Below are positions 6,646-22,712 of a stretch of DNA of 64,000 bases, one piece after another. The first letter of the stretch is position 1; each line of letters begins with the position of its first letter. Below the pieces are notes generated by a model. That model saw nothing but the letters and a program-made list of their open reading frames with translations. It did no database searches and had not been told where the DNA came from. The translations under genes were made by a program, and so were the position numbers. This DNA comes from Gammaproteobacteria bacterium (GTDB lineage: Bacteria > Pseudomonadota > Gammaproteobacteria > JBCCGL01): NCBI GenBank assembly GCA_965277715.1, contig OZ255836.1:1888001-1952000 (forward strand), given 5' to 3'.

Positions 6646-7904
6646 AACAGGCGCACTGCCAAGTGGCGATTGTGGGCGCGGGGCCGGGCGGTTTAGCGGC
6701 GGCCATTGAACTCAAACGGCTGGGTGTAAGGGACGTGGTGCTTATCGATCGCGAGCCTGTAGCGGGCGGTATTCCCCGCCATTGCGGGCACTCACCGTTT
6801 GGCCTGCGTGAATTCCAGCGCATTCTCTCCGGGCCACAGTATGCACAACGATTGGTAAAACAGGCCATCACCGCCGGTATCAGTTTGCAATTAAACACCA
6901 CCGTGACCGCACTCAAACCCGGCGGCATGCTCAGCCTGTCAACGCCGGATGGCACGTGCAAACTAGCCGCAGAAAAAGTCATACTGTGTACCGGCAACCG
7001 CGAATCACCGCGCTCGGCGAGACTGGTTTCCGGCACGCGCCCCCTGGGCATCGTCACCACCAGCGCCTTACAGTCGATGGTCTACCTCAAACAACGGCGC
7101 CCGTTTAAATACCCGGTGATAATTGGTTCCGAGCTAGTGGCATTTTCAGCGCTGCTCACCTGCCGACACGCTGGCATTAACGTAGCCGCCATGGTCGAGC
7201 CTGAAACGCGTATCACCGCCCTCCGGGGCGCAAGCCTGTTGCCACGCCTGCTCGGCACGCCGTTACTGCTGGATACATCACTCCAGACAATCAACGGCCA
7301 GGAACGGCTTGAGTCAGTGACCCTGCTCACAGGGAGTGGTAAAACCCAAACGCTCCCGTGCGATGGCGTGATTTTTAGCGGTCAATTTGTACCGGAAGCC
7401 AGCCTGATTACCACCAGCCACCTGCACAAAGACCACCGCAGTGGTGGCCCGGTGGTCGATCAGTATTACCGCTGCTCCGATCCCGGCTACTTCGCCTGTG
7501 GCAACCTGCTACACCCCGTCGATACAGCGGGCTGGTGCTGGTCTGAAGGCCGCCGGGTTGCGGCATGTGTCAACGCGGCATTAAAGGGCGCCCTGCCCGC
7601 TGCCAGCCAATTTATTGCGATCAATACAGCGGATGAGCACATCAAATACGTTACGCCACAGCGTATTGCATTACCCGATAATGCGAAAAGCCGTGCGGTC
7701 GCCGCACCCACGCAGGCCTTTCAACTGCGCTTTGCAAGCAATACACGCGGCCACCTGCAATTGCGTGACGACAAGGGCGTTTCACTCATACGCCGTAAAT
7801 TGCGGGTGCTGCGTGAGCGGCGTGTTTTACTCCCCCTACCCACCACTAACGACCTGCATAAAACCTCCAGCCTGTCACTGGGCTTTCACCCTCAAAAAGC
7901 CTGA
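6642..7904 (+). CDS. NAD(P)/FAD-dependent oxidoreductase (pyridine nucleotide-disulfide family), partner of the upstream gene
   Basis: IVGAGPGGLAAA, GGIPRHCGHSPFG, FACGNLLHPVD; ATGA overlap with the upstream gene. Confidence 0.85.
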   Translation: MKQAHCQVAIVGAGPGGLAAAIELKRLGVRDVVLIDREPVAGGIPRHCGHSPFGLREFQRILSGPQYAQRLVKQAITAGISLQLNTTVTALKPGGMLSLSTPDGTCKLAAEKVILCTGNRESPRSARLVSGTRPLGIVTTSALQSMVYLKQRRPFKYPVIIGSELVAFSALLTCRHAGINVAAMVEPETRITALRGASLLPRLLGTPLLLDTSLQTINGQERLESVTLLTGSGKTQTLPCDGVIFSGQFVPEASLITTSHLHKDHRSGGPVVDQYYRCSDPGYFACGNLLHPVDTAGWCWSEGRRVAACVNAALKGALPAASQFIAINTADEHIKYVTPQRIALPDNAKSRAVAAPTQAFQLRFASNTRGHLQLRDDKGVSLIRRKLRVLRERRVLLPLPTTNDLHKTSSLSLGFHPQKA

Positions 7905-7924
7905 CTGAGGCAACGGTCTCCAGC

Positions 7925-9211
7925 ATGAGCAATAAACACATCGAATGGCCAGAGAGCCTGTGGAAAGCCACAGCGACACCACTACAGCCCCTACCCGCAT
8001 TGCCCGGCGATATGGAAACCGATTTATTGATAGTAGGTGCTGGTTACACGGGCCTATCGACCGCACTGCACGCGCTCGATAACACCTCAGATATTACCGT
8101 TATCGACCAGGCCCAGCCGGGCTGGGGGTGTTCCGGGCGCAACGGCGGCCAGGTAAACCCGCAGTGGAAGCCATCGGTAAACGCATTGCAGCAACTGTAT
8201 CCAGGCAAGGCGTTTGACCAATTTATCGCGACACTCGACGCCTCATCGCGTTTGGTATTCGACCTAATCGAACGCCACAATATCGACTGCCACACAGTCC
8301 GCAACGGCTGCCTTATTCCAACACGGGGGGCAAAAGGCCTGGCGTATTTAACACACTGGTCACAGCTTTGGCGGGAATACGGTGCCAATGTCACATTGCT
8401 CGATGCCAGGGCCAGCGCTGAATTGATCGGCACAAACGCCTACAGTGCCTGCATGTTCGACCGGCGTGGGGGTACGGTGCAGCCGTTATCCTATGCACGC
8501 GGGCTGGCGAAAGCGTGCCTGAAAAATAAGGTCAAACTATTCGCCGACACACAAGCCTTGTCCGTTACCCGCACAAACCAGATGTGGGTCGTAACAACCC
8601 GAAAAGGGCGGATCACATGCAAGCGCCTGCTTATCGCTACCAATGGTTACACCGATAAATTGTGGCCCGGCCTGGCGCAATCCATCATCCCGGTCGCCAG
8701 CATGTTAACCGCCACCAGACCACTCCCGCCGGATGTCGCCGATGGCATCTTGCCAGGGCGACAGCCCGTTGCCGAGTATGCCGGTGTGCCCGCTTATTAC
8801 CACATCGATGCATCCGGGCGTTTAGTCTTTGGTTGGCGGGGCACACGGCTGGGCGGTATAGGCGGGCTGAATACTGGCCACCTGAAAGCACAGGCAGTGA
8901 AAACCTTTCCGGCGTTGCAATCGGCGCAATGGGAGTACGACTGGGCGGGTTACGTCGGCGTCACCAGCCACCAACGCCCCATGCTGATCAGACTGGCCGA
9001 CAATGCCTATGCCGGTCTGGGCTACAACGGTCGCGGTATCACCATGGCGACGATGATGGGCAGACAACTGGCGCAGGCGTTAAACGGTGAAGATACCAGC
9101 GTACCGATCCAGGCATTGGAAAAAGTGCGCCTGCATTCGTTCTATCCACTGGGCGGCGCGGCGCGGATTGCCTACGGACATGCTTGTGATTTTATTGTTG
9201 ATCGATCCTGA
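7925..9211 (+). CDS. FAD-binding oxidoreductase, DadA/PuuB family
   Basis: IVGAGYTGLSTA, GWGCSGRNGGQ, IATNGYT, LGYNGRGI. Confidence 0.87.
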   Translation: MSNKHIEWPESLWKATATPLQPLPALPGDMETDLLIVGAGYTGLSTALHALDNTSDITVIDQAQPGWGCSGRNGGQVNPQWKPSVNALQQLYPGKAFDQFIATLDASSRLVFDLIERHNIDCHTVRNGCLIPTRGAKGLAYLTHWSQLWREYGANVTLLDARASAELIGTNAYSACMFDRRGGTVQPLSYARGLAKACLKNKVKLFADTQALSVTRTNQMWVVTTRKGRITCKRLLIATNGYTDKLWPGLAQSIIPVASMLTATRPLPPDVADGILPGRQPVAEYAGVPAYYHIDASGRLVFGWRGTRLGGIGGLNTGHLKAQAVKTFPALQSAQWEYDWAGYVGVTSHQRPMLIRLADNAYAGLGYNGRGITMATMMGRQLAQALNGEDTSVPIQALEKVRLHSFYPLGGAARIAYGHACDFIVDRS

Positions 9212-9220
9212 ACCAATCGC

Positions 9221-9430
9221 GGAATTTAGGTTCAACAACCCTCTTATCGCCCGGCCATGCCTCACCTTCCAGGCGCTTGCCAACGCACCTGAAAAAGACT
9301 CCAGATGCGGATTCAACGACGGCTTTTAAATCGAAAGCCCCCGCTGTCGAACACCCAGCGCGTCAGCTATACTGAATTACTCTCAAACACCCTGCAAAAA
9401 AACCACCCCGGAACCCGCTATGGACCAAAG
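9221..9430 (+). repeat. 210-bp direct repeat copy 1: duplicate of the hsdM upstream region and first codons (17708-17917)
   Basis: Aligns to 17708-17917 (offset 8487) with about 4 mismatches; ends in ATGGACCAAAG then joins the RAYT-element interior via AAG microhomology. Confidence 0.95.
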
Positions 9431-10040
9431 TAAAGGGTGTAACAGCAGATAAGCTCGATAGCTATTCCTGGTCGAGTTACCACGCTTACATCAACCAAGC
9501 CAAAGCACCAGAATGGTTGCATCGAGAGGCAACCTTATAGTGCACTCTGTGCTAAACAACGTTACGTTGCTTATAAGACATATGTTGGTCGAGGTATTGA
9601 TGAGGACATCAGCCGTTTTTATAACAAAGGCAATGTGGCGACGATACTGGGTGACAAATCCTTCAAGACGTATATTGCCGAAAACCGGGAGTCGATGCAC
9701 ATATCGGGGGACTTGTCCCGTATTGTGACGGACAAGCCAAACGGTGCAGCTATAGTCGATGCAGTGGCAGCGGTGTTTGGCGTTAACGCGAGTGATGTAC
9801 TTACGCGACAGCGGGGTAAACAACGGGCGAATCTGCCTCGTAAAGTAGCGATATATTGTTGTCAGCAATTGGGAGATATGCCGTTAAAAACGCTGGTTGA
9901 TATGTTTGGATATAGTCGTGTTAGTAGCCTTTCTCCTGCAATTGATTATGTAAAGAGTGGGCTGTCAGACGGCAGCTTGAAGGGCGTGTTTGAGCAGGTT
10001 TGCAAACGTTTGAAAGATATTAAATACGATTGACCCCTTT
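9431..10040 (+). mobile_element. RAYT-like element copy 1, 5'-truncated, retains right TIR
   Basis: Near-identical to about 15923-16531; carries a 1-nt insertion (gcaaccttatag vs gcaacctatag); ends ...attaaatacgattgaccccttt. Confidence 0.93.
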
Positions 10041-10043
10041 TTT

Positions 10044-10302
10044 TTAACGCGAGTGATGTACTTACACGACAGCGGGGGAGACAACGGGCGAATCTGCCTC
10101 GTAAAGTAGCGATATATTGTTGTCAGCAATTGGGAGATATGCCGTTAAAAACGCTGGTTGATATGTTTGGATATAGTCGTGTTAGTAGCCTTTCTCCTGC
10201 AACTGATTATGTAAAGAGTGGGCTGTCAGACGGCAGCTTGAAGGGCGTGTTTGAGCAGGTTTGCAACCGTTTGAAAAATATTAAATATGATTGACCCCTT
10301 TT
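10044..10302 (+). mobile_element. RAYT-like element copy 2, 3' ~260 bp only, tandem to copy 1, retains right TIR
   Basis: Near-identical to about 16274-16532; ends attgacccctttt. Confidence 0.93.
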
Positions 10303-10320
10303 CTTTTTTATTTTTTCACG

Positions 10321-10512
10321 CTACTTTTTACTTTTTATTATCGAACTACGTCCTGTTACTCCGTAGTAACCAAGAAAAAGGCCGACAATAATAAATATTG
10401 TCGCAGTCGATTTATTCAAAAATTCTGGAAACTGCGGTAGCAACGTCTCAAGCCCCATGAACAACATAGCACTAGAAATCAGAAGAGCACATAACCTAAG
10501 AACAATTTTCAT
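10321..10512 (-). CDS. Small two-TM membrane protein, putative immunity protein of the Rhs tip
   Basis: 63 aa MKIVLRLCALLISSAMLFMG...IFIIVGLFLGYYG; starts 10 bp after the toxin-tip stop; low GC. Confidence 0.6.
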   Translation of the reverse strand: MKIVLRLCALLISSAMLFMGLETLLPQFPEFLNKSTATIFIIVGLFLGYYGVTGRSSIIKSKK

Positions 10513-10522
10513 TTTGCTATTC

Positions 10523-10966
10523 TCAAAAATTTGTACATTCGACTCGACAATAACCTTGGGCTCCAAGTTGAAAGCCAATAGCTCCAGCACCTAAAATCAG
10601 ACTTGCCGCATTGAACTTCCTAAATTGCGACAATGTTCTTAACTGTCTCTGGCCAGTCTGAAACTGTTTACTATTGCCATAGGAATTTCTGTTCCCTTGC
10701 TTTTGCAACTCGGTATCAAGAGCTTCTGCAACTTCATTACCCACGATCCCCGACAGACTTAAAGGATTTAAAGCACCAGCAGTTTCATACAGGGCACCGT
10801 AATTGTCCATAATACAAGTAGCAACACATTGCTTAAATTCATTTTTCCCAGAAATTTGATTACCAGTTGGCTGTTGAGACTGATTGCTATCACCATCCGC
10901 CCTCCAAGCACTCAACTCCGCATTAAACAAATGAGTAAACGCCGCAGTCTGTGCCCCATTTGCAAA
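10523..10966 (-). pseudogene. Orphan C-terminal toxin tip of an Rhs/SpvB-TcdB-type polymorphic toxin
   Basis: Begins FANGAQTAAFTHLFN, matching the GGKFANGAxTxAFxxxFN motif that precedes variable tips in these proteins; followed by a Cys-containing variable tip; upstream frame is unrelated sequence. Confidence 0.6.
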
Positions 10967-11368
10967 GATAGGTACGCTTGACGTGCATCCTCGTACCGAT
11001 GCCACTTTTCCTTTGATAAAACAATTAGTTAAACGTATCTTTTCCTTGATGCCATCCTGTTCTTGCGATTTTTTCCCTTGAGGCGGTTTTGGCACCGAGA
11101 CGACCAGCGCGGTACTTTTTTTCTGGATAGAAGCCGCCATCAGGTACAGCCAGGCCAACCGCCACAGACAGAGAACCTGCGGGGCATTAAGTTGAAGGGG
11201 GGATTGAGTCAGACACGTCATGCCCGATAGTTTACGCGATGATGGCACGATCACGAAGGCTTCTGTTTTTAGCGGCTTTTTTCTGAACCTTCAGGCCGCT
11301 AAAAGGCCGGGATTGCACCGGCCTTTATTGATTACTTGCACGGCTTCCAGAAAAGAAAAAAAGCAAAA

Positions 11369-11939
11369 AAAAGGGGTCAATCTTAAACAAAAGAGGTCAA
11401 TCCTATTTAATATTTTCAAAATAGTATAAATTTAATAGTGCACTCGGTGCTAAACAACGTTACGTTGCTTATAAGACATATGTTGGTCGAGGTATTGATG
11501 AGGACATTAGCCGTTTTTATAACAAAGGCAATGTGGCGACGATACTGGGTGACAAATCCTTCAAGACGTATATTGCCGAAAACCGGGAGTCGATGTACAT
11601 ATCGGGGGACTTGTCCCGTATTGTGGCGGACAAGCCAAAGGGTGCAGCTATAGTCGATGCAGTGGCAGCGGTGTTTGGCGTTAACGCGAGTGATGTATTT
11701 ACGCGACAGCGGGGGAGACAACGGGCGAATCTGCCTCGTAAAGTAGCGATATATTGTTGTCAGCAATTGGGGGATATGCCGTTAAAAACGCTGGTTGATA
11801 TGTTTGGGTATAGTCGTGTTAGTAGCCTTTCTCCTGCAATTGATTATGTAAAGAGTGGGCTGTCAGACGGCAGCTTGAAGGGCGTGTTTGAGCAGGTTTG
11901 CAACCGTTTGAAAAATATTAAATACGATTGACCCCTTTT
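11369..11939 (+). mobile_element. RAYT-like element copy 3: internally deleted non-autonomous derivative with both TIRs (left TIR duplicated)
   Basis: aaaaggggtcaatctta, then aaaagaggtcaatcctatttaatattttcaaaatagtataaatttaa fused to tagtgcactcgg (about 16029 in the full copy); right TIR ends at 11939. Confidence 0.93.
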
Positions 11940-12595
11940 CGTCTGGCTAAACAAATAATTCCTACCCAGCGACAAAGAGGAAAACCGATCCCCACTTGCT
12001 GGCCTGACTGTTGCGGATAAACTACCTGATTTTCAGGCGTATCGGGCATTGTCACAGTGGTGCCGTCAACCAATTTAACTGAACGCCCTTGCCAGTGCCA
12101 GTGACTGGCCGCTTCATTCGCCACACACTCGCCTGTACAACGGCCAAGCCCTGAGACGAGGGGGGTTGGCAGCCTTTGTCGTGCTTTACAATAACTCCCT
12201 GTCTACGTATTACTCACTGATAAACCTTCACTTAATCGCTGTACAGCGAGTGTGTTGACAGCTTGTTGGCAGGACTGATCTGCACTCATTGTTTGGTATA
12301 AAAACAGCGATAAGGTGTCTAGAGGAGGATAGCGACGCGCTCGAAAATCCGGTTGTAATTCTTCCAGTTTCGTAAGTAACTGAGAGGATGTCAGCAAGTG
12401 ATAAAAACTCAATGCATCCGAGGATTGAGCTCGGCTTTTGATGCGACGTTGAAGAATGTTGACTTTTACATTACTCTGCATGATGGCTGGTTCCTGTGGG
12501 ATAAAGGGTATTTGTGTTGGCAACAAATAACCTACCATAGAACCAGCTTTTTTTGTAATTACTTCAAATACTTACAGCTTAAGGAAGTGCCATTC
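11940..12595 (-). mobile_element. Truncated IS4-family element (transposase pseudogene 12481-11940; left end 12578-12595)
   Basis: RARRYPPLDTLSLFLYQTMSADQSCQQAV, then in-frame TAG, then TGSYCKARQRLP and RSVKLVDGTTVTMPDTPENQ..YPQ (first DDE Asp); terminus GAATGGCACTTCCTTAAG; cut by the RAYT right TIR. Confidence 0.85.
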
Positions 12596-12667
12596 GGATC
12601 AAGGCAGTTATTTCCTATATTTCTTGCTGGAAACCACTGTTTTTATCCGTATTAGTCGTTGTATGGT

Positions 12668-12690
12668 GAATAATAAGCCTGACCCCCTTG
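12668..12690 (+). repeat. Variant HUH/RAYT-type terminus (aataataagcctgacccccttg)
   Basis: Shares the TGACCCC(C)TT core with the four right TIRs, but the inner sequence differs. Confidence 0.5.
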
Positions 12691-12731
12691 CTTTCGAGAT
12701 TGTGCGCTTACTGTAAGGGCGACTTGTACAC
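12691..12731 (-). pseudogene. intI: Probable N-terminal remnant of integron integrase
   Basis: Minus strand reads GTG-Y-K-S-P then, after a frameshift, Y-S-K-R-T-I-S, resembling IntI N-termini (KSPFL...YSKRTI); divergent from attI at the expected position; very short match. Confidence 0.5.
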
Positions 12732-12741
12732 GTATAAATCC

Positions 12742-12770
12742 TTGTAAAGCAGAGAGTGTTATATGATAAT
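12742..12770 (+). promoter_or_regulatory. Candidate integron cassette promoter (Pc)
   Basis: TTGTAA-N17-GATAAT pointing towards attI. Confidence 0.3.
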
Positions 12771-12904
12771 CCAAAACCAAAATTTTAGGGAGTCGTTCCA
12801 GCATTTTTTTGTCTGTTATTTGCGATTTTTGTAGGGTTTTGTCATATTAATCAATGTTTTAGTGTGTCTTTGTGAGCTCAGTCTCGCAAAATTATCGCGA
12901 TTCC

Positions 12905-12953
12905 ACATAATATTGTTATCGAGGATTCGTTCCTCGATAACAGGCTGTTAGCT
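12905..12953 (+). other. Putative integron attI site
   Basis: Palindrome TGTTATCGAGGA-ttcgt-TCCTCGATAACA followed by core GTTAGCT (12947-12953), the exact complement of cassette 1 R'' AGCTAAC. Confidence 0.7.
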
Positions 12954-12987
12954 GTAATCAAGTCAAATACCGATTCATGGTTTAACT

Positions 12988-13839
12988 ATGGAAAGATCAG
13001 CAATTTATTTAGATAGTAATGTTGTAATCGATACAATTGAGGGACGTGATGACGAGCTAATGGGATTATTGTTCCGCAGCTTATATCTTGGGCCTTATTG
13101 CTACCCTTTTTCTGCAGAGTTGGTTGGAGAAATTACTGACTTGGATAGAGAAGAGCGCAACCAAGCTCGGTTAATGTATGTAGAAGACCTTAGTAAAAGA
13201 GTTTATTTTGAAAACTCTTTTACTAATATCGGTTTTAGGACTGTGCGCCCGCAAGAGGTTTTTGCAACGATTAATGACGTTGATATCGGTATCGATTTTA
13301 ACGATACCTTTGCAAATATGATTTCATTTGACCAAGTTTTAGAGCTGCGAAAAGCTTACAACTTAGATCCTGACTCACTAAACAATATGAAACCACGTGA
13401 GGCTCTCACCTACATAGATAATGCGCTTGAAAACTATGAATACGAAGTCGCAGAAGGAGCACCGAATCCTCCAAGAAGTATGAAGGATATGATATCTACG
13501 GTGTCAGCTATCTGTGAGGAAAGCTTTAAAAATGTTGGAGAAGGGCTCGGTACAAAAGCCGAGCATGATGCGAGTAAAAAGGATTTGGTAATGTTTTTTT
13601 CTTTGCTAGATAGCTTTGGATATTGGGGCGATCCAAGAAAGAAATATAAAAGGGGTTCCAGGTTGGTAGATGCACAACATGCTCTAGTTGGTTCTTACTT
13701 TAGCGCAATTGTTTCTAGAGATCCTCACTTTGTCCGTAAAGCAGAAGCTGCTTACGAGTATATGGGTATTACTACAAAGGCTTATACTACGGATGAGTTC
13801 AAACAACATTTATTTGGCATTTTAAGTGGCAGCAGCTAA
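12988..13839 (+). CDS. Integron cassette 1: PIN-like domain protein
   Basis: IYLDSNVV at the N-terminus and LVDAQH..SYFSAIVSRDPHF near the C-terminus fit PIN acidic motifs; low GC; stop codon lies in the attC R''. Confidence 0.7.
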   Translation: MERSAIYLDSNVVIDTIEGRDDELMGLLFRSLYLGPYCYPFSAELVGEITDLDREERNQARLMYVEDLSKRVYFENSFTNIGFRTVRPQEVFATINDVDIGIDFNDTFANMISFDQVLELRKAYNLDPDSLNNMKPREALTYIDNALENYEYEVAEGAPNPPRSMKDMISTVSAICEESFKNVGEGLGTKAEHDASKKDLVMFFSLLDSFGYWGDPRKKYKRGSRLVDAQHALVGSYFSAIVSRDPHFVRKAEAAYEYMGITTKAYTTDEFKQHLFGILSGSS

Positions 13840-13947
13840 CAAAGCTGTCATAGGGACATTTTTTGCTTCGCTCCGTTTTGGGGTGGCTTCGCCACTTTAC
13901 CCCAAAACTCCACTACACAAAAAATGCCCCATACAGAGGCGTTAAGG
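13834..13947 (+). other. attC site 1
   Basis: R'' AGCTAAC ... R' GTTAAGG, 114 bp, imperfect palindrome (gttttggggt/accccaaaac). Confidence 0.92.
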
Positions 13948-14254
13948 TACACCAGCACTAAAAGCATTTAATCCCAAAAGTAAATAGCAGGCCCAAAGAA
14001 ATAAATATTAAAATACGCTCAAAATTGCATGCCACTGGTTTTGTTCTTGCTGCCAAACTTGAGCAAAATATAAGCATCAACTTTATGGTTTCAGTTGTGG
14101 TTGCCATTAAGAGAGTATAATTTTCGTGGCAAGTTTAACGCTTTTACTTTGTTCGTTCACGTAAGTTCAACGCGTAAGTAAAGCAAACACTCTTGCTATT
14201 ACACAAACTAAGCTGGCTTCGTCACACTCATTTTGTCGGTGTTCACGGGTGCCA
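13948..14254 (+). other. Integron cassette 2: ORF-less cassette
   Basis: Bounded by the matching cores GTTAAGG and CCTTAAC; no contained ORF of 60 aa or more in the supplied track. Confidence 0.75.
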
Positions 14255-14363
14255 CCTTAACCAAGCCATCGTGGCCGACCTAGGTAAACTGTCGTCTTTT
14301 TATGCACGCTTCGCGGCAAAAAAGCCGCCAGTTTACCTAGGCGCCACATGGCAGGCGTTAGAA
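14255..14363 (+). other. attC site 2
   Basis: R'' CCTTAAC ... R' GTTAGAA, 109 bp, stem cctaggtaaactg/cagtttacctagg. Confidence 0.93.
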
Positions 14364-14376
14364 CTCAGAGTACCCC

Positions 14377-14766
14377 ATGAATACATATCAAATAATAGAC
14401 ACTATCGAGAAACTGGAAACAAGGGTCAATAGCTATTGGAACTTCTACACCGTTGTAGTTCTGGCGGTTGTTGGTTGGGTCATAACTGAAGGGCTAGATT
14501 ACAGACAGTCAATAACAGTGTTCATTTCAAATTTTATTTTTTTTCTAATGAACTTGGTGCTAATTTTCGTTACTACTAAACAAATACTGGCATTTGAAGA
14601 AGATCTGAAGTTAATGATTGTTAACGAGCTTGCTGAAGAGTCTTTCATAAGAAAGTTTTTCAGCAAACGGAGGTTTTGGAAAAGATTGGAGTTTTCTTTT
14701 GTTCTTCATATTTCTGTGGATATAGCGCTATTTTATATGGTTCTTAAGTCCGGAGGGATTTTGTAG
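14377..14766 (+). CDS. Integron cassette 3: three-TM membrane protein of unknown function
   Basis: 129 aa with hydrophobic segments; low GC; lies between attC2 and attC3. Confidence 0.75.
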   Translation: MNTYQIIDTIEKLETRVNSYWNFYTVVVLAVVGWVITEGLDYRQSITVFISNFIFFLMNLVLIFVTTKQILAFEEDLKLMIVNELAEESFIRKFFSKRRFWKRLEFSFVLHISVDIALFYMVLKSGGIL

Positions 14767-14841
14767 CTAACTCTCTGAACCAGCAGGCCTGGTGTAAGAT
14801 TGTTGGTAAGAAATCGCTAATATGTTTATATTTAAATTCCA

Positions 14842-14950
14842 TTCTAACCAAGCCATCGTGCCGACCTACATAAACTGTCTTCTTTATTTGCACGCTTCGC
14901 GGCAAAAAAGCTGCCAGTTTATTCCGGCTGGCACATGGGCGGCGTTATAA
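14842..14950 (+). other. attC site 3
   Basis: R'' TTCTAAC ... R' GTTATAA; sequence closely related to attC2. Confidence 0.92.
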
Positions 14951-14956
14951 CGGTGT

Positions 14957-15280
14957 ATGAAGTATTCAACATTACTAGAATGGGCAGCAAAACCGGTAAC
15001 CGATGAAAATAAACAGTTCATTGATGAATGGTTTTCACGGCTCGATTCAAAGGCAGAGCTTGATGATCTAGCTATTTGGCTAGCTAAATCATTTGTTGCT
15101 GGCGAGGTCAGGTATGACATTGCAAATGTATTGTTTAATCAAATTATGCCGGTTGTCGGGTTTGAAGAGGCACCCAAAATATTTTGGATATTTTATAGCG
15201 CATTTGAAGACTTTGAATTTTCAGAAAAACCTGATGAAGATGCTGTGGGTAGAATTCGGAGTGAACTTGCAAGGTTATAA
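14957..15280 (+). CDS. Integron cassette 4: acidic 107-aa protein of unknown function (possibly immunity-like)
   Basis: Starts 6 bp after R'; stop codon lies in R'' TTATAAC. Confidence 0.75.
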   Translation: MKYSTLLEWAAKPVTDENKQFIDEWFSRLDSKAELDDLAIWLAKSFVAGEVRYDIANVLFNQIMPVVGFEEAPKIFWIFYSAFEDFEFSEKPDEDAVGRIRSELARL

Positions 15281-15385
15281 CAAACGGCTCAAATTGACCT
15301 ACACTGCGTTGCTCGTTTTGTGCTTTTCCGCTACGCTAGCACAAAACAATCAACTCCGTTCCGGCAACTTAGCCGGGCGTTAGGG
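15275..15385 (+). other. attC site 4
   Basis: R'' TTATAAC ... R' GTTAGGG, 111 bp, stem gttttgtgct/agcacaaaac. Confidence 0.92.
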
Positions 15386-15416
15386 TTTGGAACAAAAAAC
15401 TAGTAGACGAGAAATA

Positions 15417-15496
15417 ATGACCAATAAGAAGAAAGTTCAAATTGAAAGAGAGCGCCCTTTTTCACCACACCATATGTTACTTGGTGCTGCAAGACT
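15417..15496 (+). pseudogene. Integron cassette 5, truncated by the RAYT left TIR
   Basis: MTNKKKVQIERERPFSPHHMLLGAARL runs directly into aaaaggggtcaatc; no attC follows. Confidence 0.7.
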
Positions 15497-16533
15497 AAAA
15501 GGGGTCAATCTTATTTAATATTTTCAAAATAGTATAAATTTAAACGATACCTAGACCTACTCGAATACAATACGAAAATGCCTACTACCACGTTATGAAT
15601 CGTGGCAAAGCCAGACAGACCATCTTTCATGGCGAAATTTACTACCAGGCATTTCTACAAACGCTCGATGAAGCACATAAACGCTTTGATGCCTGCATCC
15701 ACGCTTACTGTTTGATGAGTAATCATTATCATCTATTGATCGAAACCCCTCGTGCTAATCTGGATCGCATCATGCGACATATCAATGGTATCTACACACA
15801 ACGCTACAACCTTAGACGCACGGATGGGCCTCTTTTTCGCGGTCGTTATAAAGCGATTATTGTGGATGCAGACGACTACTTATTACCCTTAAGCCGTTAC
15901 ATTCATCGTAACCCAATAGAAGTAAAGGGTGTAACAGCGGATAAGCTCGATACCTATTCCTGGTCGAGTTACCACGCTTACATCAACCAAGCCAAAGCAC
16001 CGGAATGGTTGTATCGAGAGGCAACCTATAGTGCACTCGGTGCTAAACAACGTTACGTTGCTTATAAGACATATGTTGGTCGAGGTATTGATGAGGACAT
16101 TAGCCGTTTTTATAACAAAGGCAATGTGGCGACGATACTGGGTGACAAATCCTTCAAGACGTATATTGCCGAAAACCGGGAGTCGATGCACATATCGGGG
16201 GACTTGTCCCGTATTGTGACGGACAAGCCAAAGGGTGCAGCTATAGTCGATGCAGTGGCAGCGGTGTTTGGCGTTAACGCGAGTGATGTACTTACGCGAC
16301 AGCGGGGGAGACAACGGGCGAATCTGCCTCGTAAAGTAGCGATATATTGTTGTCAGCAATTGGGAGATATGCCGTTAAAAACGCTGGTTGATATATTTGG
16401 ATATAGTCGTGTTAGTAGCCTTTCTCCTGCAACTGATTATGTAAAGAGTGGGCTGTCAGACGGCAGCTTGAAGGGCGTGTTTGAGCAGGTTTGCAACCGT
16501 TTGAAAAATATTAAATACGATTGACCCCTTTTT
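15497..16533 (+). mobile_element. RAYT-like element copy 4, full length (~1.04 kb), with ~32-bp terminal inverted repeats
   Basis: Left aaaaggggtcaatcttatttaatattttcaaa; right tttgaaaaatattaaatacgattgacccctttt (one mismatch and one indel); no target-site duplication. Confidence 0.9.
15547..16524 (+). CDS. HUH Y1 nuclease/transposase (RAYT/TnpA-REP-like) with C-terminal DnaA-C-like HTH; start codon appears mutated to ATA
   Basis: (I)PRPTRIQYENAYYHVMNRG, AYCLMSNHYHLL (HUH), GPLFRGRY, LSRYIHRNP (catalytic Tyr), YSWSSY, PRKVAIYCCQQL..PLKTLVDIFG; stop codon lies inside the right TIR. Confidence 0.88.
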   Translation: MPRPTRIQYENAYYHVMNRGKARQTIFHGEIYYQAFLQTLDEAHKRFDACIHAYCLMSNHYHLLIETPRANLDRIMRHINGIYTQRYNLRRTDGPLFRGRYKAIIVDADDYLLPLSRYIHRNPIEVKGVTADKLDTYSWSSYHAYINQAKAPEWLYREATYSALGAKQRYVAYKTYVGRGIDEDISRFYNKGNVATILGDKSFKTYIAENRESMHISGDLSRIVTDKPKGAAIVDAVAAVFGVNASDVLTRQRGRQRANLPRKVAIYCCQQLGDMPLKTLVDIFGYSRVSSLSPATDYVKSGLSDGSLKGVFEQVCNRLKNIKYD

Positions 16534-16580
16534 GGAGTCAAAAACGAGCGTGCGTCTTTTACCTGGTAGGGCTTGGCTTC

Positions 16581-17459
16581 TTAGCGCATACCACGCAAAG
16601 CCACCCACACACCCGACAATACCAATATCGACGCCAGGACAAAATAGGTATCGATATATTCATTCAACAACACCCAGGCCAGCACCACACCAGAGACCGG
16701 TTGCAGAAACTGAAACAACCCTACCCGTTCGATTCCCCCCTTGCCCAGCGCCCAATACCAACACATATAACCGACAATAGTGACCCCAACGGCGAGATAA
16801 GCCAGCCCCAGCCAGGCCTCGGTCGCAACGGCGTTAAGCGCAGCCGTGTCAGTAATCAACGGCAGGACCAGTAACAGTGGTAATGCATAGAGCGCGGCAC
16901 CCCAAAATGTAGTGCCCACCGCCGGGTAACCCTGTTGTTGCAAACGCCCCCCGGCCACATAACCCAGCGAGGCAAAGAGATTTGACGCCAACACCAATGT
17001 ATCACCGTAAACACTCGCGCCCGCATCACCCGCACTTCCCGGGCTGCTAATCAGTAAAAACTCGCCTGCCAGGGCAATCGCGCACCCCAGCCACCAGCGC
17101 GATTGCAATCGACGCCTATTCCAAGTCGCCGCGATTGCACCGGTAAACACAGGCAATGCCGCGAGAATCATCGATGCGTGATTTGCCGATGTATGCGCCA
17201 GCCCCCAAGTAAACAACAGCGGAAAACCAACAAAGCCGCAAAAACCGGACAGCAATAACAAATAGCGCTGCCGTGCAGACGATGGCAAGGGAATACGCAA
17301 CATCAAAGCCAACGGCAACGCCACCAAACCACCCAGCGCAGTGCGCAGCACAGCCACGGTCAGCGGCGCCATCGTCGCCACCGATATTTTCGCCGCCACT
17401 GCGGAGCCACCCCATATCACCACAGCGGCCAGCGCTGCCAGAACCACCGTTAAGTGCAT
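16581..17459 (-). CDS. DMT/EamA family transporter
   Basis: Ten-TM pattern; VIWGGS, GLAHTSANHAS, FQFLQPVSG. Confidence 0.9.
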   Translation of the reverse strand: MHLTVVLAALAAVVIWGGSAVAAKISVATMAPLTVAVLRTALGGLVALPLALMLRIPLPSSARQRYLLLLSGFCGFVGFPLLFTWGLAHTSANHASMILAALPVFTGAIAATWNRRRLQSRWWLGCAIALAGEFLLISSPGSAGDAGASVYGDTLVLASNLFASLGYVAGGRLQQQGYPAVGTTFWGAALYALPLLLVLPLITDTAALNAVATEAWLGLAYLAVGVTIVGYMCWYWALGKGGIERVGLFQFLQPVSGVVLAWVLLNEYIDTYFVLASILVLSGVWVALRGMR

Positions 17460-17594
17460 AAAAATTCCCCGGTTAATTGATACGGTATGATACTGGGCAT
17501 TGGGTACTGAAAGTCCCGGTTTAGATAGCGAATGTGTATAAAACCCATCTCAAACTACCAATACGTTTTCTAGGATAATGCACCGCAACCATCC

Positions 17595-17719
17595 AACCTA
17601 AATTCCGCAGTTGAGTCGTAGCGAGGGCGTCTAAGGTGCTGAAGCTGAAATCCTGGTAAAAGCACTTTAGATTCTGTGCACTAGGTGGTCGCAGTAGATT
17701 CAACTGAGGAATTCAGGTT
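17595..17719. mobile_element. ~125-bp MITE with ~23-bp imperfect TIRs (AACCTAAATTCCGCAGTTG family)
   Basis: aacctaaattccgcagttgagtc ... gattcaactgaggaattcaggtt; further ends at 9219, 22713 and 32750. Confidence 0.75.
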
Positions 17720-17917
17720 CAACAACCCCCTTATCGCCCGGCCATGCCTCACCTTCCAGGTGCTTGCCAACGCACCTGAAAAAGACTCCAGAGGCGGATT
17801 CAACGACGGCTTTTAAATCGAAAGCCCCCGCTGTCGAACACCCAGCGCGTCAGCTATACTGAATTACTCTCAAACACCCTGCAAAAAAACCACCCCGGAA
17901 CCCGCTATGGACCAAAG
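17708..17917 (+). repeat. 210-bp direct repeat copy 2 (native hsdM leader)
   Basis: Matches 9221-9430. Confidence 0.95.
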
Positions 17918-19586
17918 CCATGAGCAGCAATTTCTCCACGATTTAGAAAAAAAACTGTGGACCAGCGCCAACAAACTACTCCCCTCACTCGACGCCAGCC
18001 AATACAAACACGTACTGCTTGGCCTGATATTTATCAAATACGTATCAGACGCCTTTGACCTCCGGCGTGCCGGGCTAAAAGACCAACTGCAAGACCCGGA
18101 TCACGACTACTACTTAGACCCAGAAGATTTTGGTGGCCGTGAGAGCCAGGCGTATAAAACCGAAATTCAAACCGAGCTGGAAGTGCGGGACTATTACCGG
18201 GAAACCAACACCTTCTGGGTGCCAGCCCCCGCACGCTGGAAATTTTTACAAAACCAAAACAAAACCGTCATCACCGGCGAACTTGAAATTGGCCAGGGCA
18301 GGCAAAAGAAAAAAATCCGCAGCGTGGGCCAGCTTATCGACAACGCCCTGGAAACCATCGAGGCCGATAACCCCAAACTCAACGGCGTGCTCAACAAACG
18401 CTATACCCAACTGCAAATCGACCAGGCCAAATTGGGCGAATTGATCGACCTTATCGCCACCATTCCCTTCACCCACGCCAGCCTCAACGCCAAAGACATC
18501 CTCGGCCATGTCTACGAATACATGCTTGGCCAGTTCGCCCTGGCCGAGGGTAAAAAAGGCGGCCAGTTCTACACACCAAAATCCATCGTCAGCCTTATTG
18601 TACAAATGCTCGAACCCTTCAAAGGCCGCGTCTACGACCCCGCCATGGGTTCCGGTGGTTTCTTTGTGCAATCAGAAAACTTCATCACCGCCCACAAAGG
18701 CACCATGGGCAACGTCAGCATCTACGGGCAGGAAGCCAACCACACCACCTGGCAACTGGCCGCCATGAACATGGCAATAAGAGGCATCGACTTCAACTTT
18801 GGTAAACAACCCGCCAGCACCTACACCAACGACCAACACCCCGACTTACGCGCCGACTTCGTTATGGCCAACCCACCGTTCAACATGAAAGAGTGGGACG
18901 CCGGTGTCAGCGACGACGACCCGCGTTGGCAATACGGCACACCACCATCCGGCAACGCCAACTTCGCCTGGCTGCAACACATGCTCTACCACACCGCACC
19001 CAACGGCAGCGTCGGCCTATTGTTAGCCAACGGTTCCATGAGCTCCAACAGTTCAGGTGAAGGCGATATACGCAAGACACTGATCGAAGCAGACCTGATC
19101 GAGTGCATGGTCGCCCTGCCCGGCCAGTTATTTACCAATACCCAAATCCCCGCCTGTATCTGGTTCTTAACCAGGAATAAAAATAAGCGCACCAGTGCCG
19201 CAGGCAGAAAACTACGCACCCGCAAAGGTGAAATATTATTTATCGATGCCCGCAACCTCGGGTACATGAAAGACCGCGTACTGCGCGACTTCACCCAAGA
19301 TGACCTAAACCAAGTGACAGAGACATTCCACCACTGGCAGATAGGTGAGGGATATGCTGATATTGCGGGGTTTTGCCGCAGCGCCGGTTTAGAAGAAATT
19401 CAAAAACACGATTATGTACTCACCCCTGGGCGTTATGTTGGTGCCGCTGCCGAAGAAGATGATGGTGAACCCTTTGCCGATAAAATGGCGCGGTTAACCG
19501 CGACTTTAAAAATTCAGTTTGAGGATTCTGATCGTTTGGAAGCTGAGATTAAAAAGAACTTGGCGGGGTTGGGTTTCGATGTCTGA
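17907..19586 (+). CDS. hsdM: Type I restriction-modification methyltransferase subunit
   Basis: GQFYTP, VYDPAMGSGG, ANPPFN (m6A motif IV), LTPGRYVG. Confidence 0.96.
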   Translation: MDQSHEQQFLHDLEKKLWTSANKLLPSLDASQYKHVLLGLIFIKYVSDAFDLRRAGLKDQLQDPDHDYYLDPEDFGGRESQAYKTEIQTELEVRDYYRETNTFWVPAPARWKFLQNQNKTVITGELEIGQGRQKKKIRSVGQLIDNALETIEADNPKLNGVLNKRYTQLQIDQAKLGELIDLIATIPFTHASLNAKDILGHVYEYMLGQFALAEGKKGGQFYTPKSIVSLIVQMLEPFKGRVYDPAMGSGGFFVQSENFITAHKGTMGNVSIYGQEANHTTWQLAAMNMAIRGIDFNFGKQPASTYTNDQHPDLRADFVMANPPFNMKEWDAGVSDDDPRWQYGTPPSGNANFAWLQHMLYHTAPNGSVGLLLANGSMSSNSSGEGDIRKTLIEADLIECMVALPGQLFTNTQIPACIWFLTRNKNKRTSAAGRKLRTRKGEILFIDARNLGYMKDRVLRDFTQDDLNQVTETFHHWQIGEGYADIAGFCRSAGLEEIQKHDYVLTPGRYVGAAAEEDDGEPFADKMARLTATLKIQFEDSDRLEAEIKKNLAGLGFDV

Positions 19587-20940: not shown

Positions 20941-20955
20941 AAGGCAGTTTAAAAA

Positions 20956-21105
20956 ATGGACTTCTCAGATTACATCATCTTTGTGAATGAAAGCGACACC
21001 AACCTCACAGATAAACAGAAAATATACCAGAGGCACAACCTCACACTACCAGCAATCAGCGTCAGCCCACTTTCCACAGAAACAGTTGGCGTACTACAGC
21101 ATTAA
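20956..21105 (+). pseudogene. Possible truncated DUF3800-family gene
   Basis: MDFSDYIIFVNES resembles DUF3800 N-termini (YxxFVDESG), then degenerates; operon position right after hsdS. Confidence 0.45.
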
Positions 21106-21278
21106 TTAGCAAGGTATGCTCACCGCCTGTACCGCACTCATTTTCAGCCCTAAAGAAACTCAGGATAGTCAAGGCAATATATGAGCCTGGTTAGATATTA
21201 CTTGCAGTGCGCATAGACAGTGCTAATAAGAACACTAATCTTTAGCGCACTGGACATCGAGAGAGGTACAAGATACAA

Positions 21279-21316
21279 GGGATACAGGAGCTAGAGCAAC
21301 GCAGGAGCAGTTGCCG
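21279..21316 (+). repeat. Single partial copy of the 47-bp repeat unit found in tandem at 31163
   Basis: gggatacaggagctagagcaacgcaggagcagttgccg. Confidence 0.85.
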
Positions 21317-21327
21317 GGGAGCAGTAG

Positions 21328-21379
21328 CTTGGCTCTGCAAAGCGCAAAGAAAAACACCAAAGTAACGCGAGTGAAACCC
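21328..21379 (+). repeat. 52-bp dispersed repeat; inverted copy at 57703-57754
   Basis: cttggctctgcaaagcgcaaagaaaaacaccaaagtaacgcgagtgaaaccc matches the reverse complement of 57703-57754 with a few mismatches. Confidence 0.8.
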
Positions 21380-21417
21380 AATACCCCTACACTACTCACA
21401 CAAAAAAACAAAACCCA

Positions 21418-22182: not shown

Positions 22183-22246
22183 GGATAGTCAAGCCCCGGT
22201 TACTATTGCACACTAACGCCACTGGTACGCCTACCAGCGTATTTTG

Positions 22247-22633
22247 TCACGTTACCTCATGCCCAAAGGTAAGCTTGTTACCATCCGGGTCCATAACAGA
22301 AAACTCCTTCATGCCCCAGGTTTGCTCAACGGGGTGAATGACGACACATGGATAACCCTCCACAGTATTTGTCACCAATCCGCGCTTTACAAACTTTTGA
22401 TACAGCGTATCAACATCATCGACACGGACATAATTCAGGCTTCCGAATGCACCATCATTCGAGTGGGAAGACAAGTGAACAAGCCCCCCTTCTCTCCCAA
22501 TCAGCGAATATCTGGACATAAACGCCTCGGGATTAGGGTCTGGCGCGACTATTACAGTGAAATCCAGAACCGCTGTATAGAAAGCCAATGAGGTTTTTAA
22601 ATTGCTGCATTTAATAAAAGGTTCGATAGGCAT
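22247..22633 (-). CDS. VOC/glyoxalase-bleomycin resistance family protein
   Basis: SLAFYTAVLDF, VDDVD, QTWGMKEFSVMDPDGNKLTF. Confidence 0.88.
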   Translation of the reverse strand: MPIEPFIKCSNLKTSLAFYTAVLDFTVIVAPDPNPEAFMSRYSLIGREGGLVHLSSHSNDGAFGSLNYVRVDDVDTLYQKFVKRGLVTNTVEGYPCVVIHPVEQTWGMKEFSVMDPDGNKLTFGHEVT

Positions 22634-22712
22634 GGTTACAGTACTCCAGGAATCTGCCGGGTAATTATTTATACTGGTTACATATTGTCATCAATGTCAC
22701 CCGCCAGTTTAT

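Follow-up and report, generated by a model that had tools for sequence, protein, structure and literature searches.

TIRtrons are units resembling insertion sequences, about 1 kb long, in which a single gene inside inverted repeats encodes a TIRYT, that is, a RAYT-like Y1 HUH nuclease with a helix-turn-helix resembling DnaA domain IV. TIRtrons, TIRYTs and the GGGGWSAS motif were named by Di Nocera, De Gregorio and Rocco in 2013 (BMC Genomics 14:522, PMC3733652). In the sections of a later paper that deal with this group (Quentin, Siguier, Chandler and Fichant 2018, BMC Genomics 19:475, PMC6006769), TIRYTs form subclass 2.1 of TnpA_REP/TnpA_Y1, with a Bac_DnaA_C tail in 2.1.2 and no REPs. The original prediction for the locus studied here presented its layout as new, a premise that fails because the layout had already been named TIRtron/TIRYT in 2013. 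Our study found that the cluster in the window (the whole 64-kb stretch of DNA analysed) consists of decaying copies of a TIRtron, a known kind of small mobile element, and scars at the element ends hint at how TIRtrons cut and copy DNA.

Protein and inverted repeats of the element

The protein of copy D (Table 1) matched Pfam Y1_Tnp (E 2.3e-15) and Bac_DnaA_C (E 2.6e-7, 31.0 bits, cut-off 31.5), and a profile of the family matched DnaA domain IV among solved structures (E 1.1e-10). Both profile matches agree with the predicted Y1 HUH gene with a DnaA-C-like tail inside terminal inverted repeats. These repeats are 33 nt long in copy D (15497-15529 and 16500-16532, 91 % complementary), and the stop codon lies in the right one, as had been noted. 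The HUH motif H61-Y62-H63 and the block R118-Y119-I120-H121-N123-P124 were invariant in 13 aligned sequences. Relatives with E ≤0.001 numbered 7,115 among 8,000 scored, and were mostly about 324 aa in length with both domains.

The inverted repeats of the element start with (A)AAAGGGGTCAA. The sequence GGGGTCAATC, allowing ≤1 mismatch, occurred 10 times in the 64-kb window, where 3.55 occurrences were expected and none of 100 shuffles gave more than 8, and 7 of these 10 occurrences fell within 10028-16528. Inverted repeats are a family-wide trait: among 74 testable loci out of 78, the best gene-flanking inverted repeat reached the score threshold of ≥13 in 56, and 50 of these (50/74 relatives) carried a GGTCA/GGGTC core of the GGGGTCA type, whereas none of the 74 shuffled controls reached a score of 13. 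A search for target-site duplications gave no signal across 47 elements at offsets of 0-12 and lengths of 3-8, and no direct repeat was found flanking any copy in the window, in accordance with the original observation. The framing of relatives by these repeats and the absence of target-site duplications indicate that the repeats belong to the HUH gene rather than to a separate DDE element.

The cluster and its surroundings

Table 1. Position and strand of the element copies and neighbouring features within the window
Feature	Position	Strand	Description
DR1, direct repeat of 217 nt	9214..9430	+	copy of 17701-17917: hsdM leader and first 11 nt of hsdM; 97 %
Copy A	9428..10045	+	5'-truncated; equals 15920-16533 of the full copy; 1-nt insertion
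Copy A right inverted repeat	10009-10041	+	kept; followed by a T run
Copy B	10044..10302	+	last 259 nt of the element with right repeat; begins right after the right end of A
Small ORF overlapping the Rhs tip ORF	10321-10590	-	putative immunity gene
Orphan Rhs-type C-terminal tip ORF	10523-11254	-	end domain resembles the C-terminus of an RHS_repeat protein
Partial left end ('end stutter')	11368..11385	+	18 nt, AAAAAGGGGTCAATCTTA; 3 nt upstream of where the full left end of copy C starts
Copy C	11389..11939	+	both inverted repeats; internal deletion equivalent to ~15544-16027
IS4-family transposase fragment	11940..12598	-	frameshifted; cut at the right end of copy C
Remainder of ~100-bp GGGGTCA-ended non-coding repeat (MITE-like)	12599..12692	+	IS4 in its left end
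Repeated non-coding block before first cassette	12693..12987	+	no integrase gene
Four integron-type cassettes and start of a fifth	12988..15496	+	attC-like inverted repeats
Copy D	15497..16533	+	full length, 1,037 bp
Copy D TIRYT frame	15547-16524	+	stop codon TGA 16522-16524 inside right repeat
EamA-family transporter gene	16581..17459	-	Pfam EamA, E 1.3e-37
DR2, native hsdM leader and start	17701..17917	+	partner of DR1; hsdM identified

All four same-orientation stretches of the element predicted within 7 kb were present (9428-10041, 10044-10302, 11389-11939 and 15497-16533) and were 96-99 % alike. They are three decayed copies, namely copy A with an appended end B, copy C, preceded by an 18-nt end stutter, and the full-length copy D. 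The inverted repeats of copy C (11389-11421 and 11907-11939) are 88 % complementary. Over its 259 positions copy B has 7 mismatches to A and 3 to D; as it is closer to D than to A's own end, it is not a fresh copy of that end, and may be what is left of an older element into which A inserted or to which it became joined. Copy D has ATA at 15547-15549, where relatives have ATG, and its frame is one codon short after 15810 compared to relatives, whereas contigs from the sequencing runs of related strains carry G at 15549 and an additional CGG behind 15810. Judged by this start and missing codon, copy D, which is the sole full-length copy of the window, probably has no activity.

The local junkyard comprises the TIRtron copies, a broken IS4, a GGGGTCA-ended repeat, integrase-less cassettes and an orphan Rhs tip. 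DR1 and DR2 bracket 8.3 kb of this accessory sequence as direct repeats (98 % by blastn, 9221-9427 against 17708-17914). The right edge of DR1 is the left break of copy A, at which base 11 of the duplicated hsdM start is joined to mid-gene via an AAG microhomology, and this break and the 217-nt bracket require a separate, non-element event. The claim that repeat ends abut unrelated DNA therefore stood in part: element ends match breaks in foreign genes exactly at the IS4 (11940) and at the cassette ORF (15497), but the left break of copy A is a microhomology joint and the proposed joint with intI is absent.

Only positions 7-60 and 96-146 of the NCBIfam NF033592 profile are left in the IS4 fragment, a match below the cut-off, and intact IS4 copies in the related-strain runs extend beyond 11943, which confirms the cut; loose contig ends occur in the runs at 11943, 12563 and 12599. 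The intact end of the fragment sits inside the adjoining GGGGTCA repeat, and in contigs of runs X1 and X3 ...AAAACAAAAGGGG precedes 12599. A supposed variant element end at 12690 was rejected, as it is the right end of this repeat. The putative intI said to be cut there was not recovered, with no integrase visible in six frames at 12540-13000 and no match in Pfam or NCBIfam for the ORF at 12652-12804. The block at 12693-12987 may be an orphan attI-like block; it is represented by several variant contigs, and the runs contain a variant with a 36-nt insertion at 12715/12716. The attC-like repeats of the cassettes end in GTTAAGG (13941), GTTAGAA (14357), GTTATAA (14944) and GTTAGGG (15379), and the ORF of the fifth cassette, from 15418, reads into the left repeat of copy D, as expected of a cassette cut at 15497. 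A third joint between an element end and foreign sequence was seen in protein P0125, in which the stop codon of another copy is read through into unrelated sequence.

Between copies B and C, the end domain of the ORF at 10523-11254 showed 68 % identity to the C-terminal 136 residues of a 793-aa protein. That protein has a match to RHS_repeat (E 1.8e-4, 22.3 bits, cut-off 22), and the earlier label of an Rhs tip is therefore reasonable. The putative product of the overlapping ORF may provide immunity to this tip. Run contigs also carry a second, diverged copy of 10900-11326.

The host is a sponge-associated bacterium, and the cluster lies on its chromosome. This genome carries multiple copies of the element, most of them broken: 13 distinct protein versions were found on the same 4.29-Mb contig, one of them intact (P0127, 326 aa). 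The same internal deletion is found in P0012 and P0132 on this contig and in P0131 on another, and the deletion joint 15917 to 16254 is present in contigs of run X6.

Related strains differ at the element-end joints. They were compared using the short-read contigs of their runs, including X1, X3, X4 and X6; such contigs break in repeats, so a joint is not always assignable to the window locus. In X4 an inverted element end adjoins 9211; in X1 and X3 such an end adjoins 9246. The joint between the right end of D and EamA, common to three of the four compared runs (X6, X1 and X4 show it), has 0 extra nt in the window, 17 in X1 and 18 in X4. A right end is joined to the IS4 at 12210 in X6, compared to 11941 in the window, and in the same run a right end meets a left end (10045 to 15497). 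The joint of copy B's right end with the Rhs block was present in 4/4 compared runs and is therefore old and stable.

Scars at the element ends and their possible origin

In many relatives, part of the element's own end is duplicated in direct orientation. An extra GGGTC lay ≤40 nt outside the repeat at 29 of 123 ends (3.1 expected), a junction-spanning direct repeat of 11-20 nt was found at 25 of 123 ends, and 18 of 47 elements were directly adjoined by a copy, in the same orientation, of 14-152 nt from their own termini. Five of the 47 were duplicated at both ends, and several elements carry two or three stacked end units. In L003 the order is left end with 249 bp, full element, last 109 bp with right end. 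Both window layouts, the A to B arrangement and the partial left end before copy C, recur throughout the family. The duplicated lengths showed a strong bias towards the first 6-20 nt and were not distributed over the whole 1 kb. On their outer side, the units end between 4 and ~16 nt outside GGGG, a spread that is loose for one fixed nick site.

The best explanation, which we hold with a little more than even confidence, is a TIRtron cluster shaped by nicking, extension and misjoining at the element ends. The helix-turn-helix domain would bind the inverted repeat. In each repeat, the HUH domain would make a single-strand nick at the outer edge, which lies 5' of GGGG by a few A-rich bases. The enzyme would remain linked to the element strand at that strand's 5' end, and strand displacement would extend the 3'-OH released on the flank. 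Transfer of this 5' end to a 3'-OH of the target would move the element without target duplication, rejoining to the extended 3' end would directly duplicate the first or last 6 to ~260 nt, and joining to a nearby unrelated 3' end would yield an end-anchored deletion. Sequence scars are the sole basis on which we infer where the nick falls, which strand is cut and that the link is covalent. Polymerase slippage, or self-insertion with subsequent homologous recombination, could also explain the end duplications. The relevant part of PMC5703833 describes single-stranded DNA generated by rolling-circle replication as raising illegitimate recombination and cassette exchange.

An ordinary insertion sequence history, in which the element preferentially inserted in or beside its own copies, and homologous recombination between copies of the same orientation plus random deletions then gave rise to the partial ends, non-contiguous flanks and terminal duplications with no special end chemistry, appears unlikely. 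A nested insertion at position q with one crossover would give [1..q][full] or [full][q+1..end], both of which are observed; B is nearer to D than to A, and copies and fragments are plentiful both here and in other genomes. However, duplication at both ends, stacked units that would each require their own nested insertion and the skew towards the first nucleotides do not fit this history, and the genomes of L031, L042 and L077 have end scars yet only one close full-length copy each. Moreover, deletions that stop exactly at the last base of the repeat are improbable by chance. The original prediction had also argued that simple insertion does not suffice; ordinary insertion with end-anchored deletion and homologous recombination between same-orientation copies fits the layout as well as capture does.

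It is less probable still that the nuclease is a dedicated shuffling device, which cuts its repeats, joins them to new partners, and captures and concatenates toxin tips and cassettes. Of the shuffling hub originally proposed, what stood is that the ends adjoin unrelated, truncated foreign genes without target duplications and that the end joints vary between related strains, and the right-end-to-left-end joint in X6 is in keeping with it. No evidence of purposeful capture was found: the cassettes bring attC-like sites of their own and come after a repeated attI-like block, the B/Rhs joint is identical in all four compared runs, copy A's left break lies outside any repeat, no module was seen to move together with the element ends, and the element is a plain single-gene unit in most relatives. 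Our reading is that the appearance of a hub is a by-product of end chemistry and ordinary recombination between copies, and not a capture function.

It is very improbable that the gene is a RAYT-like host gene that has been domesticated and does not move, its repeats having a host function as is thought for REPs. Some relatives are single-copy, and RAYTs of REP-associated groups are characterized as domesticated in the part of Bertels et al. 2017 (PMC5581495) concerned with them, but the host genome has at least 13 versions, most of them broken, a deletion derivative has multiplied, and the window protein scored 53.5 against NCBIfam REP_Tyr_transpos, below the cut-off of 80. Other genomes also hold many copies and fragments, with 29, 11 and 6 element matches (matches rather than copy numbers) in G002, G003 and G001, respectively. 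An assembly artefact from collapsed or misjoined repeats is equally improbable, since, despite the richness of the region in repeats and the lack of a bridge over the A/B joint or D's left joint among the contigs listed, X6 contigs bridge DAO to DR1 (7000-9305), B's right end to the Rhs block (10258-11326) and D's right end to EamA (16505-17626), the latter two joints are bridged in other runs too, and each copy has private substitutions.

Comparison with known systems

IS91/ISCR, Helitrons/Helentrons and RCR plasmids use an HUH nick, 3'-OH extension and rejoining, with no target duplication, and rolling-circle HUH elements display multiple or tandem ends, together with rearrangements of which one endpoint is fixed where the nick is made. 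The proposed TIRtron mechanism would resemble these systems, although they are other HUH clades, most without inverted repeats, and membership is not claimed. IS200/IS605 elements (IS608, ISDra2) have a Y1 HUH domain and no target-site duplication; their ends are differing subterminal hairpins rather than inverted repeats, and both cuts are made on one strand. The window element shares the Y1_Tnp domain, the lack of target-site duplication and an expected tie to single-stranded DNA at replication forks, but it has inverted repeats at its ends, is without tnpB and scored 25.2 against the NCBIfam IS200 model, below the cut-off of 55. REPs are short hairpins in hundreds of dispersed copies, and the RAYT gene is single-copy. 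In the E. coli TnpA_REP system (REPtron/RAYT) of Ton-Hoang et al. 2012, the Y1 HUH gene reportedly lies between inverted copies of its substrate sequence, and a conserved tetranucleotide tag is said to sit on the outer side of the recognised sequence. In contrast, the window element has repeats that do not form a fold by themselves, and its gene is present in multiple copies.

The closest match is to the TIRYTs. Subgroup 2.1.2, as outlined in PMC6006769, shares the ~324-aa protein, the C-terminal Bac_DnaA_C-like helix-turn-helix and the lack of REP-like hairpins near the gene; the sections of that work on this subgroup are a protein phylogeny, with mobility, end structure and rearrangements outside their content. 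The TIRtron account in PMC3733652, in the sections describing these units, centres on repeat families and dimers, not on direct partial duplications of own ends or end-anchored deletions. As described there, TIRtrons have, like the window element, a RAYT-like Y1 HUH gene, terminal inverted repeats that take the place of REP hairpins, repeats at a fixed short distance that overlap the 3' end of the gene, a GGGGWSAS-type core, of which the window core GGGGTCAA fits 7/8 positions, and gene-less repeat dimers. Unlike the TIRtrons of those sections, the whole unit, including the gene, is multi-copy in the window element and decays like an insertion sequence.

Copies of a TIRtron and the protein that it encodes

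The repeated unit in this region is a TIRtron, a class already in print, in which a unit of about 1 kb carries a single TIRYT gene between terminal inverted repeats, and the cluster that it forms here is decayed and unusually informative. The original prediction had reported such repeats, and they do exist, as one full unit (copy D) and three further stretches (copies A, B and C) in the same orientation, each with 96-99% identity to the corresponding part of D. The inverted repeats of D consist of 33-nt arms (15497-15529 and 16500-16532) that are 91% complementary, and the TGA stop of its frame was located within the right repeat, as had been proposed. Allowing at most one mismatch, the core GGGGTCAATC was found 10 times in the window, compared to 3.55 expected, and seven of these ten lie within the copy region. 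Copy D reads ATA at the start codon, where its relatives begin MPRP, and is also one codon short. At 15549 the contigs from public sequencing runs carry a G, and after 15810 they have an additional CGG; both lesions therefore look private to D.

Coordinates of the TIRtron copies and of neighbouring repeats and cassettes in the window
Feature	Position	Length	Description
Copy D, full unit	15497-16533	1,037 bp	Single long frame at 15547-16524
Copy A	9428-10045		Corresponds to 15920-16533 of full copy D
Copy B, end appended to A	10044-10302		Last 259 nt of the element
Copy C	11389-11939		Both ends kept, internal deletion
Partial left end	11368-11385	18 nt	3 nt ahead of the full left end of C
GGGGTCA-ended repeat	12599-12692	~100 bp	IS4's own end sits in its left end
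Four integron-type cassettes	from 12988		attC-like inverted repeats ending GTTRRRY at 13941, 14357, 14944 and 15379

Within 16516-16545, the right end of D (TTGACCCC) is followed by five T and then by a left-end-like core, GGAGTCAA. These two sequences are able to pair as a small hairpin, and the second may be there by chance or as the remnant of an abutting end.

Both of the domains that had been predicted were recovered when the frame of D was compared to Pfam, with an E value of 2.3e-15 for Y1_Tnp and of 2.6e-7 for Bac_DnaA_C, the latter at 31.0 bits and so half a bit under the curated cut-off of 31.5. A profile of 13 family members matched solved DnaA domain IV in the PDB (E 1.1e-10); the solved structures found in this way were DnaA chains only, with no TnpA_REP or IS608 TnpA chain at E 0.01. 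The residues H61-Y62-H63 and R118-Y119-I120-H121-N123-P124 were invariant among the 13 aligned sequences. Scoring of 8,000 candidates yielded 7,115 relatives at E ≤ 0.001, typically of 324 aa and with both domains, and the closest non-self relative shared 63% identity.

This genome contains multiple, decaying copies of the element. A protein collection lists 13 distinct versions on one 4.29-Mb contig, the same contig as the window, of which one (P0127, 326 aa) is intact and the remainder are truncated, frameshifted or read-through. One of these, P0125, reads through its stop codon into unrelated sequence, which adds a 166-residue tail with no Pfam match at E 0.01; this tail may resemble the end of an rve-type transposase. 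The identical internal deletion was seen in two versions on this chromosome (P0012 and P0132) and in one on another contig (P0131), which indicates that the deletion derivative has multiplied, and a contig of the public run X6 carries that deletion joint (15917 to 16254). In X6, the contig depth summed over the element was 6-14x that of neighbouring unique bins, which is not a copy number but is compatible with many copies. Three other genomes (G002, G003 and G001) gave 29, 11 and 6 matches, respectively, and these likewise are not to be read as copy numbers.

Inverted repeats and duplicated ends across the family

In total, 78 loci encoding relatives were fetched, 74 of them with enough flank for an inverted-repeat test, which sought the best inverted repeat between the region upstream of the gene and its 3' end (score ≥ 13) alongside a shuffled control for each locus. 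An inverted repeat at this score was found in 56/74 relatives, compared to 0/74 shuffled controls, and 50 of those 56 carry a GGTCA/GGGTC core; the repeat core of the relatives reads GGGGTCAA or GGGGTCAG. These sequence comparisons indicate that the inverted repeats are a property of the HUH gene family. No target-site duplication was detected in 47 elements at offsets of 0-12 and lengths of 3-8, in agreement with what had been noted for the window, and the bases just outside the GGGG were A-rich at both ends. That the repeats might instead belong to a separate DDE element is not borne out, since the 47 elements give no duplication signal and the sole ORF between the repeats is the HUH gene.

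Scanning a metagenome with the repeat pattern returned 10 loci, none of which (0/10) encodes a relative of the TIRYT protein. These loci are other elements, among them three MITE-like pairs of ~134 bp on metagenome contigs (L112, L115 and L117), which are gene-less, have inverted AAAGGGGTCAA...TTTAATA ends and derive from a related type of repeat in another organism. A plasmid collection gave 20 matching records, none of which covers 80% of the protein and all of which fall below 60% identity, so no pair was usable for an empty site.

The ends of these elements are frequently duplicated. A second GGGTC within 40 nt outside the repeat was present at 29/123 ends, where random windows of these loci gave an expectation of 3.1. 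At 25/123 ends the junction is spanned by a direct repeat (11-20 nt, period 9-37 nt), which in places is stacked at least three times. Both cores and flanks were available for 47 elements, and 18 of these are abutted by a copy, in the same orientation, of their terminal 14-152 nt (9 left, 14 right and 5 on both sides). The clearest two-sided case, at locus L003 (4948-6350), consists of the left end with 249 bp, then the full element, then the last 109 bp with the right end; at L020 a copy beginning at internal position 236 comes after the right end. Three scarred genomes (those of L031, L042 and L077) hold only one close full-length copy each. In the window, this family pattern recurs in the A|B pair and in the partial end of 18 nt ahead of C. 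The TIRYT loci listed in the supplements of Di Nocera et al. 2013 and Quentin et al. 2018 might already show such end duplications.

The island and its joints in related strains

A direct repeat of 217 nt (9214-9430 and 17701-17917, 97% identity) encloses the 8.3 kb in which all the copies lie; it comprises the leader and the first 11 nt of hsdM, and Campbell-type circle integration, or tandem duplication followed by deletion, are candidate origins for it. The left break of A coincides with the right edge of this repeat, where the hsdM start ...ATGGACCAAAG runs into element ...TAAAGGGTG. The AAG at this break is common to both parent sequences, which marks it as an illegitimate joint formed through microhomology, as opposed to an end joint. 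The stretch 9212-9427 was considered as an older diverged copy of the TIRYT gene and rejected, being the hsdM-leader duplicate. A Type I restriction-modification system (hsdM, hsdS and hsdR) occupies 17907-26157, in which hsdS and hsdR are separated by SnoaL-like and glyoxalase-like genes of the opposite strand.

Elsewhere in the window, a HipA-like kinase gene stands at the start (275-1591; HipA_C, E 1.8e-45), and three tandem 47-nt units, 87-100% alike, occupy 31159-31299, with a weak copy at 21256-21302. A repeat of ~125 nt at 17595-17720, found also at 22713-22786 and 32750-32779, had very high summed contig depth in 4/4 runs and many different loose ends, and is a small, high-copy element with no relation to the TIRtron.

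Within the island, the ORF between B and C ends in 136 residues that share 68% identity with the C-terminus of an RHS-repeat protein of 793 aa, and its sequence fits an orphan Rhs tip. The upstream half of this Rhs-tip region (10900-11326) has a second, diverged copy (34-37 differences) in runs X1 and X6, which fits an orphan tip able to recombine with a main rhs gene. An IS4 fragment follows the right end of C and covers only positions 7-60 and 96-146 of the NCBIfam profile, and intact IS4 copies elsewhere extend beyond 11943.

The ~100-bp repeat behind this fragment shares 17/23 words with a repeat family of this genome. In X1 and X3 it reads ...AAAACAAAAGGGG immediately before 12599, and in this intact form it shows a TIRtron-like stutter of partial ends (AAAAGGGGTCA, then TATAAAAAC, then AAAAGGGGTCAAGG), which suggests that a TIRYT acts on it. 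The end of the same repeat explains what had been read as a variant element end cutting a putative intI gene at 12690; no integrase frame was found in six frames at 12540-13000, and the ORF at 12652-12804 has no Pfam or NCBIfam match. Following the four cassettes, a fifth cassette ORF runs into the left repeat of D, and the EamA gene is next after the right end of D. Targeting of attC by the element was dropped as an explanation, as the left joint of D falls inside this ORF and not at an attC.

Contigs of four public runs were compared over 7000-19000. One run (X6) is labelled as an organism. The other three (X1, X3 and X4) come from sponge metagenomes; their flanking genes differ by ~1% from the window, and they have no contig cover over parts of it, e.g. 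14218-15420. The joint between the right end of B and the Rhs block is common to 4/4 runs, and that between the right end of D and EamA to X6, X1 and X4, the latter joint with 17 additional nt in X1 and 18 in X4 that in each case repeat a portion of the end. The left joint of D, to judge from these contigs, is not shared, in keeping with a later deletion that had its fixed point at the left end. After the DAO gene, which lies left of the island, X4 runs into an inverted element end at 9211, as do X1 and X3 at 9246; in the window this place is taken by the hsdM-leader duplicate and the truncated copy A. In X6 a right end is joined to IS4 at 12210, where the window has 11941, and a right end also meets a left end (10045 to 15497); these two X6 joints may lie outside this locus, since repeats interrupt the contigs.

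Origin of the duplicated ends and comparison with known systems

We offer a tentative, and quite possibly mistaken, explanation of the partial end duplications (6 to ~260 nt, stacked 2-3 deep and present also in single-copy genomes), namely that they are scars of abortive replicative transposition, in which the TIRYT nicks the outer edge of either repeat, the flank 3'-OH primes strand-displacement synthesis and the displaced 5' end is rejoined. In the most likely mechanism, the HTH domain would position the enzyme on the inverted repeat, and the HUH domain would nick the strand 5'-(A-rich)GGGGTCAA at the outer repeat edge, a few bases 5' of the GGGG (strand reading AAAAGGGGTCAA), and stay bound to the 5' end. 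Once the flank 3'-OH had been extended, rejoining its new 3' end to the displaced 5' end would duplicate the first q nucleotides, which could explain why units occur at both ends and in stacks, why short q is favoured and why single-copy genomes are scarred. Were the 5' end joined to a target 3'-OH, the element would move without duplication, and joining to a nearby unrelated 3' end would leave a deletion anchored exactly at the element end, as the left joint of D (truncated cassette ORF) and the right joint of C (truncated IS4) appear to be.

Self-insertion followed by homologous recombination would also give single terminal duplications, and the closer match of B to D (3 differences) than to A's own end (7/259 positions) agrees with it; two-sided and stacked units, and scars in single-copy genomes, are less well accommodated by this explanation. 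That the cluster is an assembly artefact is unlikely for the joints bridged by independent contigs; the A|B and D left joints had no bridging contig among the records listed. The original prediction envisaged a shuffling hub, in which the nuclease joins its repeats to new partners and captures foreign modules. What remains of this idea is end-anchored rearrangement, with breaks that coincide with ends and joints that vary between strains. Purposeful module capture finds no support, as each cassette carries a site of its own and the joint to the Rhs block is an old one.

If abortive replicative transposition is the correct reading, TIRtrons would be a distinct two-ended, rolling-circle-like class of bacterial transposon and would, by the same misjoining, reshape symbiont genomes through end-anchored deletions, this island being an example. 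The window adds a case of a whole TIRtron unit proliferating and decaying like an insertion sequence and, together with the 78 related loci, a reproducible end scar that leads to a testable proposal for the cut site and for replication during the move. For the host genome, a scrambled accessory island is explained without a new capture system.

Rolling-circle replicons, in which nick-site deletions have been classically studied, are a functional analogue of the proposed end chemistry. According to a review, single-stranded DNA in such replicons raises illegitimate recombination and cassette exchange (PMC5703833). As with an autonomous insertion sequence, there are copies at multiple sites, a multiplied deletion derivative and ends at differing positions between related strains. 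The window element differs from IS200/IS605, with their dissimilar subterminal hairpin ends and IS200-type TnpA, in its inverted-repeat ends and in scoring 25.2 bits against the NCBIfam IS200 model NF033573 (cut-off 55). Nor does it resemble a classical RAYT/REPtron, which scores as a REP-associated transposase and has flanking REP hairpins: it scores 53.5 bits against the NCBIfam RAYT model NF047646 (REP-associated tyrosine transposase; cut-off 80), and no REP-like hairpin was found in either end, where single repeats fold no better than shuffles (z +1.14 to -1.19).

A literature search for 'TIRYT' found only two papers, and no bench study was found of TIRYTs, of RAYTs with terminal inverted repeats or of Bac_DnaA_C transposases. 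Di Nocera et al. 2013 (PMC3733652) named such units TIRtrons and their enzymes TIRYTs, with a GGGGWSAS core in many repeats, and Quentin et al. 2018 (PMC6006769) placed TIRYTs in TnpA_Y1 subclass 2.1, with a DnaA-like tail in 2.1.2 and REPs absent nearby. The window core GGGGTCAA fits 7/8 positions of this motif, the last being A where the motif has S. The window protein is likewise a RAYT-like Y1 HUH nuclease (HUH motif and Tyr in a YxHxNP-type helix), its gene likewise lies between terminal inverted repeats and not REP hairpins, and its C-terminal Bac_DnaA_C-like HTH likens it, by domain content and not by tree, to subclass 2.1.2.
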